Virus record (IMG/VR): IMGVR_UViG_2531839664_000015
Span: 1-16,592 of that record
Strand: one strand, 5' to 3'
Length of the DNA: 16,592 nt
Origin: a virus
Taxonomy: Duplodnaviria; Heunggongvirae; Uroviricota; Caudoviricetes
The notes under the pieces are model-generated. The model saw only the letters and a program-made list of their open reading frames with translations, ran no database searches and had not been told where the DNA came from. How positions within the stretch are numbered: the stretch's first letter is position 1; every line of letters starts with the position of its first letter. The translations under genes were made by a program, and so were the position numbers. Below are positions 7,328 through 15,307 of the stretch, in pieces.

Positions 7328-7360
7328 TAATATTTCCTCCGACAAAATCGTTTCTCAGAT

Positions 7361-8023
7361 TCAAATAAAACCAGCTGCCTTCCGGCGTTCGTATTCCTGT
7401 TTCAGCCGTTCAATTGGCGTTGGCCCTTGCGGGTGTTTCGCCCCTTCCAGTTGTCGTCGCACTGGCGGAACACTCATCCCGTTACCAACATGCTTTGCCC
7501 ATTTCGTCAGTTGCCGTTCCGCAAGTCGTTTTAACTCACCTTGCGTCATCTGGCGCTCAATCCCTCTGGTACGCATTTCGAGGCAGATGTGGTACAGCAC
7601 AGGCTGTGGCCACGGGTATTTATCACTCCCGTCGTATCGCCAGGATTCATTGCGCCAGCGCCGGTACTCTTCCATCACGGCATCCACCGTAAGACCAAAT
7701 GGATTTGCCCCACTCTCCGAAATCAGCGCAACAAACTCAGCCAGGTCCGGGGGCCACGTTTCACCCGCCCGGCAGCGGTCCATGCACTGACGGCACACCA
7801 GACGGATTTGCTGTTCAGTCATCGCACCAATCTGGGCAATCCAGAGCTTCGAAGGTGCGGCCCCGTTCTTCTGAGTCCAGCGGTTCGAATACACCTCCCC
7901 CATGAGCTCCCACAGCTTCCAGGCCGTTTCCGTTGCTGATAAATCCGTTGTCACGTTCCCACTGTTCGCGTGCAGCCCGGATTTCCTGAACTGCCCGTGA
8001 TGCCGTGCCACCTGATGCTGCAT
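7361..8023 (-). CDS. lambda P-like replication protein (helicase loader)
   Basis: Central and C-terminal blocks resemble lambda P as recalled (TEQQIRLVCRQ..., WPPDLAEFVALISE, VMEEYRRWRNESWRYDGSDKYPWP); ATG with a G-rich ribosome-binding site; sits directly after the O-like gene. Confidence 0.75.
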   Translation of the reverse strand: MQHQVARHHGQFRKSGLHANSGNVTTDLSATETAWKLWELMGEVYSNRWTQKNGAAPSKLWIAQIGAMTEQQIRLVCRQCMDRCRAGETWPPDLAEFVALISESGANPFGLTVDAVMEEYRRWRNESWRYDGSDKYPWPQPVLYHICLEMRTRGIERQMTQGELKRLAERQLTKWAKHVGNGMSVPPVRRQLEGAKHPQGPTPIERLKQEYERRKAAGFI

Positions 8024-8882
8024 GGCTTCCCCCCTTGCTGACTGGTTTTACCTGTGCCCTGACGTGCTGCACGTGGCGGGCAAATTTCTGCTCCCACTGA
8101 ACCTGCGTGAAAACCTTCCCCTCCGCCATCCAGTAATCCCGGAATGCGGCAAGCTCAGCAGGTGTAAATTCCGGCTCAGGCAGAGCCATACCCCACACTG
8201 CTGCCCGTTGTCGAAAATCCGGCGACGGCTGCCAGACAGTAGTCATCGGAAATTTCCCGATCGGTTCGCTCAGGCCGTCCAGGTATTCAGGTTCGGCTGT
8301 CTGCAACGGCGCACCATTCGACTCACTGGTCGGAATACTCTCGCGCGCGTTATGTGTGGGGTTTAATTCTGTATCTGTATCTTTATCTGTATCTTTATCT
8401 GTATCTTTATCTGTATCTTTATCTGTCGTGACTTGTCGTGACAGATGCGTGACACGTCGTGACTCATCGTGACAATCAGCATTATGTTTCCGCAGCTTTT
8501 CCCGCTCCCGCTGCGCTCTCTTGCGCTCTGCCGGGGATTTTGCCGTTTGCGAAACGTTACCATTGTCCTCTTTCAGCACCTGACGTTTTTCCCATCCGGA
8601 AATAAGGTCACCATCCAGAACCCGCCCCTGCATTGCATGCAAAATTGAATCAATTACGTCTTCCGTCACATCAAGCGCACTTGCTAAATCTTCCGTCGTG
8701 ACATCAATGTGACCACGTAGTGACACGCCGTGACATGTCGTGACATTTCGTGACGCACTCACCAGAAGATGGATATACACTGCCATCACTGTTGCGATTG
8801 GCTGTCCTGATACCCTGGCAATCGTTCGCCACTTGGGGTCATTTGGCATGTCATGCCACAATCTGAGCCAGGCATTAGCCAT
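7815..8882 (-). CDS. lambda O-like replication initiator with internal origin repeats
   Basis: 355 aa from the first ATG (the track start at 8888 is GTG). Sits immediately upstream of the P-like gene and contains phased iteron arrays and an AT-rich tandem repeat, as in ori-lambda; the repeat encodes a TDKDTDKD linker. Confidence 0.7.
   Translation of the reverse strand: MANAWLRLWHDMPNDPKWRTIARVSGQPIATVMAVYIHLLVSASRNVTTCHGVSLRGHIDVTTEDLASALDVTEDVIDSILHAMQGRVLDGDLISGWEKRQVLKEDNGNVSQTAKSPAERKRAQREREKLRKHNADCHDESRRVTHLSRQVTTDKDTDKDTDKDTDKDTDTELNPTHNARESIPTSESNGAPLQTAEPEYLDGLSEPIGKFPMTTVWQPSPDFRQRAAVWGMALPEPEFTPAELAAFRDYWMAEGKVFTQVQWEQKFARHVQHVRAQVKPVSKGGSHAASGGTASRAVQEIRAAREQWERDNGFISNGNGLEAVGAHGGGVFEPLDSEERGRTFEALDCPDWCDD
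8370..8423. repeat. AT-rich tandem repeat (hexamer TGTATC, then 4 copies of 12-bp unit TGTATCTTTATC); candidate DNA-unwinding element of the origin
   Basis: Direct reading: tgtatc + (tgtatctttatc) x4, lying next to the iteron array. Confidence 0.8.
8424..8473. repeat. iteron array 1: five CGTGAC direct repeats at 10-11 bp phasing (candidate ori iterons)
   Basis: CGTGAC begins at 8427, 8437, 8448, 8458 and 8468. Confidence 0.8.
8696..8753. repeat. iteron array 2: six GTGAC(A) direct repeats at 10-11 bp phasing
   Basis: GTGAC begins at 8697, 8708, 8719, 8729, 8739 and 8749, inside the 5' part of the O-like gene. Confidence 0.75.
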
Positions 8883-8950
8883 ACTCACCTCTTCTGATAC
8901 CGAACTTTACCCTCGAACATCCGGAAGAAATCCGGCATGAATATTGTTGG

Positions 8951-9376
8951 TCAATGCACGACAACAGCATTACCAGGCTGCCCCCCACTGTTAGTCAGGG
9001 TGCCCCAGGCGATCGCCGCTGCGACAAAATCATCCACATCTTTCACCAGCCGATCCCTCCGTTCGACGATCTCACGGTAATATTCAGAGCTGTGACTGCG
9101 CATACGGGCCACCAGCAGAGGCGGCATTGCCTTTTCGATCGCCGGTAACAGAGCCTGCATTTTTTCAACTGCATCAGGGGTGTCTTTCTCTATCCAGCGG
9201 AAAATTTTCTGGGTATTGCGAGCCAGGGCTTCCGGATGGCTGTCGTCGTACAGTTCAGGAAACGTCATACCCAACTCAAAATAAGCCTGGGTTATTCCAG
9301 CTGCCGGAACTTTTTCGCCATCAGGACGCGCCCAGGCATTCATCGCCATGCGGATGTGTTCATGCTTGATTTTCAT
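8951..9376 (-). CDS. ydaT: YdaT-family protein (cII-slot protein of Rac-type immunity regions)
   Basis: 141 aa from the ATG with a GGGGGGA ribosome-binding site; MKIKHEHIRMAMNAWARPDGEKVPAAGITQAYFELGMTFPELYDDSHPEALARNTQKIFRW... closely matches Rac YdaT as recalled. Confidence 0.85.
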   Translation of the reverse strand: MKIKHEHIRMAMNAWARPDGEKVPAAGITQAYFELGMTFPELYDDSHPEALARNTQKIFRWIEKDTPDAVEKMQALLPAIEKAMPPLLVARMRSHSSEYYREIVERRDRLVKDVDDFVAAAIAWGTLTNSGGQPGNAVVVH

Positions 9377-9602
9377 GAATCCCCCCTTGGTTAGAAGGCG
9401 GATTATGATCAGAATCGGGAATGACAACCGTCGGTATGTGTAACTCATATTTGAGCGCCCCGGCAGTGACTGCCTGAATTAGCAACGCCCATTTCCACGG
9501 AACGTCTTCCCCCCACATGCTGACTGTGGTTTTTGACGTTCCTAGAGCGGCGGCTGTTTTAACAACTCCGCCAAAATAGCCTAATACTTCTGATTTTTTC
9601 AT
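9360..9602 (-). CDS. Cro/YdaS-like helix-turn-helix regulator (80 aa)
   Basis: First gene of the minus-strand early operon, divergent from cI; helix-turn-helix segment VVKTAAALGTSKTTVSMWG; overlaps the ydaT start by 17 nt. Confidence 0.7.
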   Translation of the reverse strand: MKKSEVLGYFGGVVKTAAALGTSKTTVSMWGEDVPWKWALLIQAVTAGALKYELHIPTVVIPDSDHNPPSNQGGIHENQA

Positions 9603-9693
9603 GAGTCGCTCCATAAAACTGAACGCCAAAAGTTTAATAATCAAAACCAAAGAAAGTCAAGAAACAAAACCATCTGTGTTTTAAAATCAAAAC
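9603..9693. promoter_or_regulatory. divergent immunity control region (OR-like) with 18-bp palindrome TGTTTT-N6-AAAACA at 9677-9694
   Basis: 91-bp AT-rich intergenic region between divergent cro-like and cI-like genes; a perfect inverted repeat overlaps the cI start; a second partial palindrome AAAACT-N10-AGTTT lies at about 9616-9636. Confidence 0.5.
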
Positions 9694-10332
9694 ATGAACA
9701 AGCAAACAATATCTGAACGCATAACCCAACGTATGCATGCGCTAAACTTGAAAGGCAAAGACCTTGTCAATGCCACTGGCGCATCAAAAGGCTCCGTAAG
9801 TCAATGGATGAACGGTGGAGGAGCGCCGTCCTCGCGTTACATAAGTTCACTGGCAAAGATATTGAAAGTAAACGAAAATTGGCTTCTTAATGGAGGAGAG
9901 TTAAATACAGGTGATTCGCTTGATCTATCTTTACCGCCGATAAAAACGGTTCCGCTACTATCACTTCAGCAGGCAGCAAGCTGGAGTGATTATATGAAAA
10001 ATTCCTCAATAACCTCTTGTGTGCAGCTTGTCGGAGAAATCCCGGCCAATACCTTTGCTGTTGTTCTAGAGAGTGACAGTATGTCGACATCTGGTGGTGG
10101 AGTTTCCATCCCAAATGGTTCAACAGTTTTTGTTGATCCCGATCGAATCGTACAACCAGGAAATATTGTCCTTGCCTTACCCAAAGGGACCACAACGCCT
10201 GTCATTCGCAAACTGGAGATAGAAGGGCCGGATATTCTTTTAGTCCCCACGAATCCTCGCTACCCTTCAATTATGCTGGATGATCTATCTTGCATATTGG
10301 GAGTATGCTTTAAAATTCAACAAGATATTTAA
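9694..10332 (+). CDS. CI-like phage repressor (N-terminal helix-turn-helix plus C-terminal S24 LexA-like peptidase domain)
   Basis: 212 aa; helix-turn-helix LKGKDLVNATGASKGSVSQW; S24 motifs (AVVLESDSMS with the Ser nucleophile, downstream Lys in IRKLE). Confidence 0.9.
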   Translation: MNKQTISERITQRMHALNLKGKDLVNATGASKGSVSQWMNGGGAPSSRYISSLAKILKVNENWLLNGGELNTGDSLDLSLPPIKTVPLLSLQQAASWSDYMKNSSITSCVQLVGEIPANTFAVVLESDSMSTSGGGVSIPNGSTVFVDPDRIVQPGNIVLALPKGTTTPVIRKLEIEGPDILLVPTNPRYPSIMLDDLSCILGVCFKIQQDI

Positions 10333-10396
10333 CCAACCTCATCTATTTGATTAACTGTATGCCATCGTAGTGATGGCGTAACAGCTGCCTGCTTAA

Positions 10397-10445
10397 AATG
10401 TTTTGATAAAAAAACATTGACCTTAAATGTTCGTTTTTCTAAACT
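10397..10445 (+). promoter_or_regulatory. putative PL-like promoter (-35 TTGACC, 17-bp spacer, -10 TAAACT) overlapped by a second copy of the palindrome (10399-10416)
   Basis: Sigma-70-like hexamers at 10417-10422 and 10440-10445; the palindrome is identical in half-sites and spacing to the one at 9677-9694; a third AATGTT lies in the spacer. Confidence 0.4.
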
Positions 10446-10624
10446 TCATTCATTCCCTCACCCCGCCCCACAGAATGCAGGGCAATACTTCGAGTTACCA
10501 GGCAGTGGTCAGGGGTTAAGTAGCCAGCCCGAGGCGTAAGAACATGACGGCAGGGTTCAACTTTAATAACTATGCAGCAGGTTTTTGTTCCGCTACCCCG
10601 GCGTTAAGGGGAAATGAGGTCAAC

Positions 10625-10777
10625 ATGGATACGCTCAATCTTGGCAACAACGAATCTCTGGTATGTGGCGTGTTCCCCAACCAGGACGGTACGTTCACCG
10701 CGATGACGTATACCAAAAGCAAAACGTTTAAAACTGAAGCTGGCGCGCGTCGCTGGTTAGCCAGAAACACTGACTGA
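10625..10777 (+). CDS. small hypothetical protein (50 aa)
   Basis: ATG with GAGG at 5-nt spacing; stop overlaps the next ORF (TGATG). The 77-aa track ORF has no RBS at its first ATG. Confidence 0.5.
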   Translation: MDTLNLGNNESLVCGVFPNQDGTFTAMTYTKSKTFKTEAGARRWLARNTD

Positions 10778-10788
10778 TGAGGTTGACG

Positions 10789-11427
10789 ATGGAATTTAAA
10801 GATTTACCTCCTTCAATCCAGGAGATTGCAGCACACACACTTCGTCATCGTCTGAACGAACTTGAATTGGAATCGGTAACGAAAAAAGACACTGATAATA
10901 TGGCTCGTAATGTGCGCGATGCGTTTACCGGATTGTATTTCTGTGCGTCTATAAATAAACACGACTCAGAGAGTGTGGCAAATAAAATTGCAGAAACGAC
11001 AGCGCAAAACATCAATACGAAACCAACGGAAGAAGAAATTGATCAGTTTGCTCATGATGCTGGTTTAAAAAACAAGAAAGAAAAATCGCCATATGCGGGG
11101 AACATGTTTGTTTATGACAATCTCATCAGAATTCGTGGCGAAATTCCGGCGGAATACCTGGCAAGAGTCCATCAGGCATTGCTTAAAAATTTGGAAACAG
11201 AATTATTTGATGGCAACACTAACGGTTTCTTCATGGTATCAGGCCTTGAGAAAGACTGGGATGCAGAAAAACGCTGGAATGTTGCTACATGGTTATTCAG
11301 TAACAGAGCCGCTGCACTGGAAGCTTCGGCATGTATTTGCGGCCTGTTCTTAACAGACCACAAATATAATCTGGATGTGTACAGTTATATTTACGCTGAA
11401 CACGGTCCACTCTGGATTGACTGGTAA
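10789..11427 (+). CDS. hypothetical protein (212 aa), unknown function; cargo next to the immunity region
   Basis: ATG with GAGG at 6-nt spacing (the track start at 10777 has no RBS); translationally coupled to the 50-aa ORF; no recognisable motifs. Confidence 0.6.
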   Translation: MEFKDLPPSIQEIAAHTLRHRLNELELESVTKKDTDNMARNVRDAFTGLYFCASINKHDSESVANKIAETTAQNINTKPTEEEIDQFAHDAGLKNKKEKSPYAGNMFVYDNLIRIRGEIPAEYLARVHQALLKNLETELFDGNTNGFFMVSGLEKDWDAEKRWNVATWLFSNRAAALEASACICGLFLTDHKYNLDVYSYIYAEHGPLWIDW

Positions 11428-11637
11428 TTATAAGGAAACACCAGCAGGGCCGCGGCGACCAACAGAACGATTAAAATCAATAATGCCATTATAAAGGACA
11501 TTATTTAATTTATCGTCGAATGCTGATTCTGTGAGCCTCAACTCTGAATGAGTTTTTAATAACCCTGATTGCCTGAGTTGATTTACCAGGCATTCAATCT
11601 GTTTTTCAATAAGCGGATTTCTTTTTTTGTTTGGCAT
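11428..11637 (-). CDS. hypothetical small protein (69 aa), opposite in orientation to the surrounding operon
   Basis: Internal ATG with GGAGGA at 5-nt spacing; converges tail-to-tail with the 212-aa gene (stops adjacent). Confidence 0.45.
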   Translation of the reverse strand: MPNKKRNPLIEKQIECLVNQLRQSGLLKTHSELRLTESAFDDKLNNVLYNGIIDFNRSVGRRGPAGVSL

Positions 11638-12201
11638 TTTATCCTCCATTGAGGTTCTGGGTTAAAAATGGAGACCAACACGCTGTCACGTGTGGTCGTG
11701 CGCCGGACACGGATAAGAATCCGGTACTGACAGTTTACTGAAAGGATATTTCCCTGAAAAGTCAGTGCATAACGCGAAAGCGTACGGCGAAGCTCTTTCC
11801 CTTAGAAGGCTTGTCGTTAGATTTCTTCGAACGTGCGCTTCCGGTTGTGGCACTCCGCGAAATGGCGCGGCGGTAAGTATGGCGGGGTTATTCCTTCCCC
11901 ATTGAGGACACCGGGTTGTCAGGTTGACCATACGCTTAAGTGACAACCCCGCTGCAACGCCCTCTGTTATCAATTTTCTGGTGACGTTTGGCGGTATCAG
12001 TTTTACTCCGTGGCTGCTCTGCCGCCCTTTTTAAAGTGAATTTTGTGATGCGGTGAATGCGGCTAAGCGCACGCGGAACAGTTAAAACCAAAAACAGTGT
12101 TATGGGTGGATTCTCTGTATCCGGCGTTAATTGTTAACTGGTTAACGTCACCTGGAGGCACCAGGCACTGCATCACAAAATTCATTGTTGAGGACGCGAT
12201 A

Positions 12202-12390
12202 ATGGAAACGTTATTACCAAACGTTAATACGTCTGAAGGTTGTTTTGATATTGGTGTTCTGCTCAGTAACCGGGAGTTTACTGAAGATGCCATTAACATG
12301 AGGAAATATGAGCCTTATCTGCTCAATGATAATTCCATACTTTCCCGAATTGCTCTTCTTGAACTTGGTATTTTCGGAGAACGTCAATGA
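12202..12390 (+). CDS. small hypothetical protein (62 aa)
   Basis: ATG at 12202 with GAGGA at 7-nt spacing, shorter than the track ORF. Confidence 0.45.
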   Translation: METLLPNVNTSEGCFDIGVLLSNREFTEDAINMRKYEPYLLNDNSILSRIALLELGIFGERQ

Positions 12391-12575
12391 CTTCAGCATT
12401 TGCACTGATGATGACGGTTTTTCTTATAACGGGTGAATCACAGAATGTGATTACCGGAATTTATGCCAGTAAAGAATCCTGCCTCCAGGCAAGAGACGAG
12501 CAAAAAATTTCTGGTGAATGCCTCCCGGTAAAAAAAGTATCGCTGTACCTGAATAACGAAACACCGGCTGGATAA
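12387..12575 (+). CDS. small hypothetical protein (62 aa) with hydrophobic N-terminus
   Basis: ATGA overlap with the preceding ORF (translational coupling); N-terminal MTSAFALMMTVFLITG is signal or transmembrane-like. Confidence 0.45.
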   Translation: MTSAFALMMTVFLITGESQNVITGIYASKESCLQARDEQKISGECLPVKKVSLYLNNETPAG

Positions 12576-12667
12576 CCCTCCAGCCATATTAACACCATAC
12601 CAACGGATTAAAAATGCCAGCAATGGCAGGGATTTGTTCACCCTTAAATCTGTAATGAGGTTTATCA

Positions 12668-15130
12668 ATGAGCACTGATAAAGAAGAATTTGCGCTATAT
12701 TGCGAAGCAAAAAATGACAAAGTCAGAAAACGTCTGGGAATTAAAGGTGGTTTTTACTGGACTACAGCAAAAAAATTATCTGTTGCCATCTCCCGCTGCA
12801 TTACCGCAATGGATGACAACGATTATGATGAAGACGACTTTAAAAAACCCGTTCGCGTCCATTTACCCGTTGTGAATGACCTTCCACCTGAAGGCGTGTT
12901 TGATACCGAATTCTGCAACCGATACGAAAAAGGCGGGGAAGATGGCATTACAATGGTATTTATCGCGCCCTCTCCCTCCGTGCAGGAGAAACCAGCCAGT
13001 ACTGACAATACCAACGTCAACGGCGAAGACATGACGGAGATTGAGGAGAATATGCTCCTGCCGGTTTCTGGTCAGGAGCTGCCCATTCGCTGGCTTGCGC
13101 AACACGGCAGCGAAAAACCAGTAACGCACGTTGCACGGGAAGAACTTCAGGCATTACATATAGCACGGGCGGAAGAACTGCCGGCTGTTACTGCCCTGGC
13201 CATTTCTCACAAAACAAAGCTGCTCGACCCGCTGGAGATTCGCGACCTTCACAAACTGGTACGCGACACTGACAAAGTTTTCCCTAATCCCGGTAATTCA
13301 GACCTGGGACTGATAACTGCTTTTTTCGAGGCATACCTGGACGCTGACTACACTGATCGGGGTCTGCTGACAAAAGAGTGGATGAAAGGAAATCGTGTTT
13401 CGCGTATCACCCGTACGGCTTCCGGTGCAAATGCCGGTGGCGGGAACAAAACCGATCGCAATCCGAATTTAGTACACACCTTCGATACGCTGGATGTGGA
13501 GATTGCAGCAGCCACACTTCCGATGGATTTTAATATTTATGAAATTCCGGGCAGCGTTTATCGTCGCGCAAAAGAAATCGTCCTGAAAAGAGAAAGTCCG
13601 TTCAAAGAATGGTCCGCAGCACTTCGCGCAACCCCGGGTATTCTGGACTATTCCCGCGCCGCTATTTTTGCACTTATCCGGAGCGCTCACCCTGAGTTTT
13701 ATCACTACCCGGGACGCCTTCAGGGGTATATCAACGCCTACTTAACGGAGACTGATCACGAGAACCCCAGCAAGGAAACTCTCACTGCTGCACGACATAC
13801 ACCGGAAAAAGATATCCTGGAAGAAGTTAACCGCGAACTGTCTGCTAAGCAGGAAACAGAAGAAGAAGAAAATGATGAAGAAAAACCGCAACCATCTTGC
13901 GCAATGGCAGATGAACAGGCAACGGCTGAAACAGTGGAACCGGATGCAACTGAACATCATCAGGACACGCAGCCGCTGGATGCTCAGTCACAGGTAAATT
14001 CTGTTGATGCGAAATATCAGAAACTGCGGGCAGAACTCCATGAAGCCCGGAAAAACATTCCGCCCCAAAATCCTGTCGATGCAGACAAATTACTGGCTGC
14101 CTCTCGCGGAGAATTTGTTGAAGGGATTAGCGACCCGAATGATCCGAAATGGATTAAGGGGATCCAGACCCGCGATTCTGTGTACCAGAACCAGCAAGAA
14201 ACGGAACAGAACGACCAGAAAGCGGAACAAAACAGCCCAAATGCGTTACAAAACGAGCCAGAAACGAAACAGCCTGAACCAGTGGCGCAACAGGAAGTGG
14301 AAAAAGTCTGCACCGCCTGCGGTCAGACCGGCGGCGGCAACTGCCCTGATTGTGGCGCGGTGATGGGCGACGCAACATACCAGGAAACCTTCGATGACAA
14401 GAACCTGGTTGAAGTTCAGGAAGACGATTCGGAGAAAATGGAAGGCGCTGAACATCCACACAAGGAGAATGCTGGCAGCGCTCAGGACCACGCCAGCGAT
14501 AGTGAAACTGGCGAGACGGCAGATCCCTTAATTACGGTGAACGGTCATCACGTTATCACATCCACCAGCAGGACGTGTGACCATCTAATGATCGACCTTG
14601 AAACCATGGGAAAAAATCCTGATGCCCCGATTATCTCAATAGGTGCAATATTTTTCGATCCGCAAACCGGAGATATGGGACCGGAATTTAGTAAGACTAT
14701 CGATCTGGAAACTGCTGGCGGAGTCATTGATCGGGACACCATTAAATGGTGGCTTAAGCAATCACGCGAAGCGCAATCTGCCATTATGACCGATGAAATC
14801 CCGTTAGATGATGCACTGTTACAATTGCGGGAATTTATCGACGAAAACTCCGGTGAATTTTTTGTTCAGGTCTGGGGAAATGGAGCCAACTTCGACAACA
14901 CGATTTTGCGCCGTTCATACGAACGGCAGGGGATCCCCTGCCCGTGGCGTTACTACAACGATCGCGATGTGCGCACAATCGTTGAGCTGGGGAAAGCCAT
15001 AGACTTCGATGCCAGAACGGCTATTCCATTCGAAGGTGAGCGCCATAATGCACTTGATGACGCCCGTTACCAGGCAAAATACGTTTCAGTTATCTGGCAA
15101 AAACTGATCCCGAGTCAGGCTGATTCTTAA
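12668..15130 (+). CDS. RecE-like (exodeoxyribonuclease VIII-like) protein with C-terminal DEDDh/DnaQ-like 3'-5' exonuclease domain
   Basis: 820 aa; ATG with an AATGAGG ribosome-binding site. N-terminal and central segments resemble the non-catalytic region of Rac RecE as recalled; acidic linker; CxxC...CxxC zinc-ribbon ([16 protein letters not shown]). The C-terminal ~190 aa carry the three DEDDh motifs DLETMG, GNGANFD and HNALDDA. Confidence 0.8.
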
Positions 15131-15201
15131 TGTTCAACTGTCGCCGGTTGTGACTGGTATTCTGCAACCGGCGCTCGTCTGATGTAAGAGATAAAGAAGC
15201 G

Positions 15202-15243
15202 ATGAGCGAAGTAATCATGATTGTCTCTCCCGGCAAATGGGTA
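15202..15243 (+). pseudogene. 5' fragment (14 codons) of a small ORF interrupted by the IS element
   Basis: ATG at 15202 (MSEVIMIVSPGKWV) runs into the IS left end; the same frame continues after the IS (SEEQLIALKGIKKGTLKKAREKSFMEG...) once one copy of the GTA duplication is removed. Confidence 0.5.
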
Positions 15244-15307
15244 TGAGGTAGCCTGAGTTTAACGGACACTCCTTCCTGAAATAGAATGGCATCAGAAGGA
15301 GCTAATA

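Follow-up and report, generated by a model that had tools for sequence, protein, structure and literature searches.

The virus record IMGVR_UViG_2531839664_000015 of IMG/VR (Caudoviricetes) contains, in the 16,592-nucleotide (nt) stretch analysed here (positions 1 to 16,592 of the record, hereafter the window), two genes for DNA replication proteins that share 209 nt in different reading frames. One encodes a replication initiator and the other, P, a lambda-P-type helicase loader; both lie on the (-) strand, and the shared stretch extends over 7815-8023. Comparison with homologous loci indicates that this long out-of-frame overlap is very probably real and evolutionarily maintained, the initiator being read to its TGA at 7815 and P being initiated independently at 8023. 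The initiator open reading frame (ORF) of 357 amino acids (aa) occupies 7815..8888 and closes with the TGA at 7817-7815, while the 220-aa ORF of P occupies 7361..8023, opens with the ATG at 8023-8021 and is in frame +1 relative to the initiator. About 69 codons of each gene are shared, i.e., the last 69 of the initiator (aa 289-357, followed by the stop) and the first 69 of P.

The overlap was noticed in an earlier reading of the sequence, and its coordinates are borne out by the ORF list and the sequence itself, as are the ATG at 8023 with a G-rich ribosome-binding site (RBS) and an internal ATG at 7822 which together with the initiator stop forms ATGACTGA. The contrast drawn there with lambda, whose O and P genes do not overlap extensively, is also correct, the lambda O-P overlap being 4 nt. 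Three explanations were left open in the original prediction, namely a start of P at the internal Met 7822, a frameshift in one of the frames, and a real long overlap, which would be a normal family feature if homologues kept it with conserved residues in both frames. The homologues do have the same overlap and conserved residues in both frames, in agreement with the third explanation. Long gene overlaps annotated in prokaryotes frequently turn out to be mispredictions or errors. A prior description of this initiator/P overlap was not found in the literature searched, although one may still exist.

A scan of one genome per species gave 37 related loci, and in 33 of them, from about 20 genera of Enterobacterales (including Escherichia, Salmonella, Citrobacter, Klebsiella, Enterobacter, Pectobacterium, Serratia, Yersinia, Erwinia, and Rahnella), the same architecture is present. 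The identity of their P proteins to that of the window ranges from 42% to 95%. In all 33 loci P is in frame +1, its RBS and ATG are located within the upstream gene, and the length of the overlap ranges from 149 to 227 nt, being mostly 209-215 nt (L030 was counted from its RBS-supported ATG; its first ATG would make the overlap 242 nt). The initiator stop is usually found 89-92 nt past the codon of Met41 of P and never ahead of an EPLDxEE motif in the initiator frame. Among complete E. coli genomes the module has matches in 2151 of 5426, and 658 genomes have a match at no less than 80% query coverage. It is barely conceivable that the overlap is an artefact in which a frameshift, a sequencing error or pseudogenisation runs one frame into the other: the general frequency of mispredicted overlaps is all that speaks for it, nothing specific to this case, whereas the same frames and overlap recur in the 658 E. 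coli genomes (at least 80% coverage) and in 33 loci from about 20 other genera, and neither protein is truncated or loses its conservation towards the ends. The window thus holds a well-supported long dual-coding region within a very common prophage module.

Of the four exceptions among the 37 loci, L037 and L040 are pseudogenes, and L029 and L038 each hold a stand-alone P remnant next to host genes. The initiator frame of L038 is interrupted by stops inside the tail region, and in L029 a stop lies upstream of a still open, recognisable relic of the tail. The P homologue of L029 (1791-3552, Erwinia sp. CGal63) has no initiator upstream, and its neighbour is TtcA-like, as judged by eye only; that of L038 (2974-3543, Erwinia sp. 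MMLR14_017) likewise has no initiator upstream, and its neighbour resembles a PTS-type transporter. Both stand-alone homologues appear to be prophage remnants.

By its profile match P is a helicase loader of the lambda P family (PF06992, Phage_lambda_P: 57.9 bits against a cut-off of 26, E=1.3e-15), with aa 58-187 corresponding to profile positions 31-161, and homologues of 215-223 aa with 50-70% identity span 95-100% of the 220-aa ORF. It matches lambda P chains in sequence from residue 69 onward only. The AlphaFold2 (AF2) model of P was aligned by Foldseek with full-length lambda P from the cryo-electron microscopy structure of the DnaB-P complex (9oa1_Z) over 222 columns, with E=5.4e-6 and a template modelling score of 0.45, which is only moderate because the mean predicted local distance difference test (pLDDT) value of the model is 75; a Foldseek comparison with the 8v9s domain gave a root mean square deviation of 1.0 over 70 columns. 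The predicted fold thus resembles lambda P over its full length. The initiator was annotated in RefSeq, from the ATG at 8882 in place of the GTG at 8888 that opens the 357-aa ORF, as a DnaT-like ssDNA-binding domain-containing protein, and Pfam places a DnaT domain (PF17948) at aa 213-279 (8052..8252), with 63.4 bits against a cut-off of 25 and E=1.6e-17. This DNA-binding domain, with AF2 pLDDT values of 85-92, is the last folded part of the protein before its tail. Of the labels given in the original prediction, P-like is therefore upheld by the family match, while O-like is justified only by where the gene lies and what its product presumably does, as a Pfam scan of the window initiator found no Phage_rep_O domain (PF04492) at E<=0.01.

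The best-supported start of P, judged by the features of the start region and their conservation, is Met1 at 8023. Its RBS, AAGGGGGGAAG (8026..8036, -), lies within the initiator codons K-G-G-S, 4 nt upstream of the ATG, and forms a duplex of -11 kcal/mol with the anti-Shine-Dalgarno (anti-SD) sequence of 16S rRNA, the background mean being -2.4 kcal/mol. Conservation of this start and of the overlap was examined in 33 sequences, i.e., 32 loci and the window. The median strength of the Met1 RBS is -9.5 kcal/mol, and in 26 of the 33 it reaches -7 kcal/mol or less, a value attained by 4.2% of background positions. The first ATG of the P frame is at the equivalent position in all loci, with a GGAGG-type motif 6-10 nt upstream; such motifs are visible in nearly all of them. 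As aa 1-26 of P are free of sequence constraint, the use of Met1 rests on the conserved RBS and ATG, on the open frame, and on the need for P to start before residue 27. From these features we infer that Met1 is the sole start.

Public annotation of P differs. In RefSeq the E. coli 'replication protein P' starts at Met68 (ATG at 7820..7822) and has 153 aa, which reduces the overlap to 8 nt; in GenBank phage records P is annotated as a protein of 140-153 aa; RefSeq entries of Salmonella, Klebsiella, and Citrobacter start P at Met41 and give it 180-181 aa; and older NCBI records and metagenome gene calls contain forms of 215-223 aa. If the RefSeq form in E. coli were right, P would be made from ATG 7822 by termination-reinitiation at ATGACTGA, a junction that resembles classical translational coupling, and the long overlap would be an unused open frame. 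This is most improbable, and on the alignments Met68 is the wrong start. The codon of residue 68 is ATG in only 23 of the 33 sequences and has no RBS (median -2.3 kcal/mol). R48, W49, K52, N53, G54, P57, and W61, which are near-invariant among 28 homologues down to 46% identity, would be left untranslated, as would the rest of a P frame that is strongly constrained upstream of Met68; A34, W35, and W38 are also conserved in the same alignment. Three helices predicted with confidence would be lost, and what remains corresponds to the C-terminal two thirds of lambda P only. In lambda the N-terminal region of P is needed for function, since a deletion of aa 9-86 abolishes replication (PMC3640518).

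A start at Met41 (ATG at 7901..7903, where RefSeq begins the 180-aa P of Salmonella and Klebsiella) deserves more consideration as a possible secondary start, though it is unlikely that P is made only or mainly from it, as a 180-aa protein with an 89-nt overlap whose upstream 40 codons stay open through constraint on the initiator. In favour of it are the ATG, found in 31 of the 33 sequences, the upstream TGGGAG (3-nt spacing, median -6.1 kcal/mol), the 180-181-aa annotations mentioned above, and the unconstrained, disordered aa 1-26 of the long form. However, L020 and L022 have CTG at this position, Met41 sits in the middle of a helix predicted at aa 24-45, and the RBS of Met1 is stronger, better spaced, and conserved. 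A34, W35, and W38, all upstream of Met41, are conserved, the codon of W38 being TGG in 33/33 sequences, and even the stand-alone P genes of L029 and L038 begin upstream of the AWxLW motif. Moreover, the synonymous sites of the initiator are frozen over P aa 27-40 (0.77 against 0.46, see below), which argues that the P frame is under selection upstream of Met41. With the start at Met1, the RefSeq 'replication protein P' would lack 67 residues in hundreds of E. coli genomes, the O157 and O121 prophages of Shiga toxin-producing E. coli among them, and 40 residues in other genera; P cloned or modelled from the annotation would then be missing its N-terminal domain.

The N-terminal part of P that precedes Met68 has the consensus AWxLWxxMGEIYSNRWTxKNG...W. 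In the AF2 model aa 1-26 are disordered, and helices are predicted at 24-45, 47-53, 59-66, and 70-85 with pLDDT values of 75-84 (78-84 for the first three). The residues conserved within the N-terminal helical region, aa 27-68 (7820..7945, -), are A34, W35, W38, M41, R48, W49, K52, N53, G54, P57, and W61. Over this region the constraint is dominated by the P frame, and the initiator frame encodes a disordered acidic tail. The opposite is seen in the first part of the overlap, where the initiator frame dominates: a tail helix, TASRAVQEIRAAREQWER (7950..8003, -; initiator aa 296-313), has the conserved motif SRAVQQIRAAREQWER and is amphipathic, and the P frame opposite to it encodes the disordered, variable aa 8-25 of P. 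In an AF2 model of a 168-aa initiator fragment this helix is found at residues 107-124. The distal tail (LxEPLDxEE...) is acidic and predicted to be disordered, with pLDDT below 50. It contains FEPLDSEER (7863..7889, -; initiator aa 334-342), which is encoded by the same DNA as the P motif SNRWTQKNG. The P-frame peptide SGLHANSGNVTTDLSATETAWK falls within aa 1-40, and the peptide TFEALDCPDWCDD belongs to the C-terminal tail in the initiator frame. Alignments and models together suggest a partition of constraint: in the 5' half of the overlap the initiator frame would be constrained by its helix, with the P leader (aa 1-26) disordered and freely varying, and in the 3' half the P frame would be constrained by its helices, with the initiator tail disordered and acidic.

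Both frames are open in all 33 sequences, among which the amino-acid divergence is large (45-70% identity). When the initiator is recoded at random with synonymous codons, a median of 25% of trials per locus leave the P frame open across the overlap from end to end; when P is recoded in the same way, the median for an open initiator frame is 4%. With the recoding test split by halves, the medians were 0.54 and 0.24. The two frames are thus open in these diverged homologues more often than expected from codon choice alone. Synonymous constraint was measured in sequence pairs sharing an amino acid, as the fraction of them that also share the codon. For the initiator frame this fraction is 0.46 (0.457) outside the overlap, which serves as the baseline, and it rises to 0.77 over P aa 27-40, 0.81 over aa 41-55, and 0.88 over aa 56-69. 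For the P frame it is 0.62 over aa 1-33, against 0.36-0.48 elsewhere. At single sites the wobble position of P codons is biased towards bases that preserve tail glutamates: K52 is AAG in 30 of 33 sequences (38% in the background) and, where residue 46 is Ser, 16 of the 20 codons are TCG (20% in the background), each keeping a Glu of the tail, and P codon 51 ends in G in 25 of 33. This bias, together with the maintained open frame, argues for selection on the tail as well. The comparison of homologues shows, within the limits set out in the next paragraph, that the overlap is conserved, that both frames are under selection, and that P starts upstream of residue 27.

Several observations weigh against this interpretation or narrow it. 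The identical-codon fraction of the initiator frame over P aa 1-26 (0.47; 0.468) is at the baseline. In the P frame codon identity is not raised over aa 34-69, being 0.449 against 0.36-0.48; a description of both frames as equally conserved everywhere was for this reason dropped, and the flat value led to the adoption of partitioned constraint together with site-specific wobble bias. Much of the conservation of the distal tail is forced by P, where W-T yields D and the wobble base of Asn yields an alternation of R and W. A shorter isoform from Met41 may coexist with the full form, as its ATG is conserved and preceded by the moderately SD-like TGGGAG. The loci are phylogenetically related, so summed or multiplied probabilities overstate significance; the constraint and recoding statistics ignore kinship, and the alignment of variable segments is uncertain.

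The tail encoded opposite the 5' end of P is not tied to one kind of initiator. One and the same tail is found on at least five unrelated C-terminal body types, always upstream of this subtype of P: DnaT-domain proteins, DUF1376-only proteins, Phage_rep_O proteins (L019 and P0145 are relatives with that domain and the same tail), HTH_36/DnaD_N and unclassified proteins, and proteins with a lambda-O-type C-terminal body ('FWxxNxLxPxKLRDKW'). All of them switch to the common tail at the RBS of P, and a motif of the FEPLDSEER type is kept in the tails of every initiator type. A word-indexed search with the 76-aa tail gave nine matches, mostly E. coli fragments, and phmmer, run exhaustively against 1.84 billion representatives, found 20, in which the tail is always C-terminal and carried by DnaT or Phage_rep_O proteins. 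Some NCBI records name fragments of the DnaT-domain-plus-tail protein 'prepilin peptidase' (P0169 and P0174), a name for which the domain evidence gathered here contains no support. DnaT-domain initiators without this tail (P0197 and P0234) served as a control. They end in LDWNNTDWIEGV, which closely resembles the C-terminal LDLTNTDWIYGV of lambda O, and they are followed by P proteins of 258-260 aa whose N-domain aligns with that of lambda P, with overlaps of 4 or 29 nt. It is also worth mentioning that LDxxNTDWIxGV is a second portable initiator end, common to lambda O and DnaT-domain initiators; it is found in L042 (3640-3831), L043 (3640-3792), and lambda (L041, 937-1086), paired in each with a lambda-like N-domain of P. 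In the sequences compared the type of tail co-varies with the type of loader N-domain, independently of the initiator body, and this points to two or more tail/N-domain specificity classes. P0106, an apparent O-P fusion considered as a natural docking test, was dropped, being a deletion chimera without the tail and the P N-domain.

In lambda the C-terminus of O is taken to bind P and the N-terminus of P to bind O (PMC6022878). Combined with the co-variation of tail and N-domain, this makes it probable, by analogy, that each partner's side of the initiator-loader contact is encoded in the overlap. In the mechanism proposed, the initiator with its DnaT domain would be translated through to the TGA at 7815, and P would be initiated separately, inside the initiator gene and in frame +1, at its own RBS and ATG 8023. 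The shared DNA would act as an interface cassette, with the initiator tail docking on the N-domain of this subtype of P. Since the 5' end of the P gene also encodes the tail, any initiator body brought in upstream by recombination would gain the matching one, and recombination would be unable to part the two specificity determinants. It can be proposed only tentatively, with the chances somewhat below even, that the 5' end of P carries in its second frame a portable docking tail which is appended translationally to whichever initiator lies upstream. Alternatively, the partner of the tail could be DnaB, a chaperone or DNA, a further point against the docking proposal. Were the proposal true, both halves of a specificity interface would lie on about 200 nt and be inseparable by recombination in mosaic lambdoid phages, a genetic device linking a protein-protein interface while the rest of each gene shuffles freely. 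The co-variation suggests how mosaic phages keep the initiator-loader contact matched, and the two tail types set against two types of P N-domain are a testable candidate for that contact, which is structurally undefined even in lambda.

A different role would be a programmed +1 frameshift producing an initiator-P fusion, or control of the P:initiator ratio by ribosome traffic, the tail itself being functionless. P is indeed in frame +1 and the two frames run together for about 200 nt; moreover, lambda P is toxic on over-expression (PMC3640518), which makes dosage control plausible. Such a role is nevertheless very unlikely. No obvious shift-prone motif was seen in the aligned start regions and codon tables, in which no systematic search for slippery sites was made, and no significant RNA structure, such as a hairpin for coupling or occlusion, was found around the start of P (z=-0.96). 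The independent conserved RBS and ATG favour separate initiation, and the wobble bias that keeps specific acidic residues of the tail indicates that the tail sequence itself matters.

The pair formed by the window initiator and P resembles lambda O and P in several respects. The early-right gene order (cro, a gene at the position of cII, initiator, loader) is the same, the loader belongs to PF06992, and the window P model can be aligned with DnaB-bound lambda P. In lambda, too, the O frame continues into P, staying open for 34 codons past its UGA, and O', a read-through protein extending into P, has been reported as a minor product (PMC3640518). However, the lambda overlap is 4 nt (ATGA) against about 209 nt in the window, the window initiator carries a DnaT domain but none of the Phage_rep_O type, and the N-terminal region of the window P has no detectable sequence similarity to aa 1-80 of lambda P. 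The O' extension was considered as a homologue of the tail and rejected, as its sequence is unrelated; it arises by read-through, whereas in the window the extension is, as read from the sequence, the normal product. The same DnaT domain is found in the ydaU-ydaV system of the Rac prophage and in other 'phage replisome organizer' initiators, with N-terminal alleles of the DUF1376 type in relatives, and the neighbourhood there is also alike, with dicA/dicC-like genes or cro, ydaT, and DUF1627. The DnaT-domain initiators next to a lambda-like P differ from the window initiator by ending in LDWNNTDWIEGV and overlapping P by only 4-29 nt. The loader YdaV of the K-12 Rac prophage is of DnaC type and not of P type.

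The spanin genes Rz and Rz1 of lambda are another case of two proteins made from one stretch of DNA in different frames, the +1 frame being used there as well, and the products of Rz and Rz1 bind each other. Order in one frame and disorder in the other is a feature shared with Rz/Rz1 and with overprinted gene pairs. In contrast to Rz1, which is wholly embedded in Rz, the window pair is a tail-to-head overlap of separate, older genes, and neither product is a de novo protein as a whole. The pair would thus be a clean case, in a bacterial virus, of a long terminal overlap with both frames selected and with order in one frame opposed to disorder in the other.

The initiator gene is itself mosaic. 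A 12-nt tandem repeat of 4.9 copies (8368..8426, -; detected with Tandem Repeats Finder), which encodes a DKDT linker, marks where the variable N-terminal half of the initiator is joined to the block consisting of the DnaT domain, the tail, and P; BLAST matches to the query 7300-8950 break at query positions 1066-1099, coinciding with this array. Altogether three short tandem arrays are present inside the gene, within 8368-8474 and 8720-8754: the DKDT array is adjoined by a 10-nt repeat, GTCGTGACAC, also of 4.9 copies, and the third is GTGACATGTC of 3.5 copies. By analogy with lambda, the iterons of which lie inside O, these repeats could be origin iterons.

Positions 1-15198 of the window are identical to a Rac-like lambdoid prophage of E. 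coli O121 RM8352 (NZ_CP028110.1). The genes around the overlapping pair form a lambdoid early-right operon, with a CI-like repressor gene on the (+) strand followed on the (-) strand by a P22-Cro-like gene, YdaT, the initiator, P, and DUF1627. The window departs from NZ_CP028110.1 from 15199 onward; in the latter, IS600 and IS3 insertions are present just past the point equivalent to 15198, and the probable source of the window is therefore a relative whose insertions differ. The CI-like repressor ORF (9694-10332, +) encodes 212 aa with HTH_3 and Peptidase_S24 domains, of which RefSeq annotates only the C-terminal 113 aa (9994-10332 of the window) as a 'LexA family protein'; this may be a second under-called start site in the same prophage. 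Finally, two ORFs run antisense to the overlap, at 7541-7939 (+, 132 aa) and 7699-7905 (+, 68 aa), and are treated as by-products of the G+C-rich dual-coding stretch.

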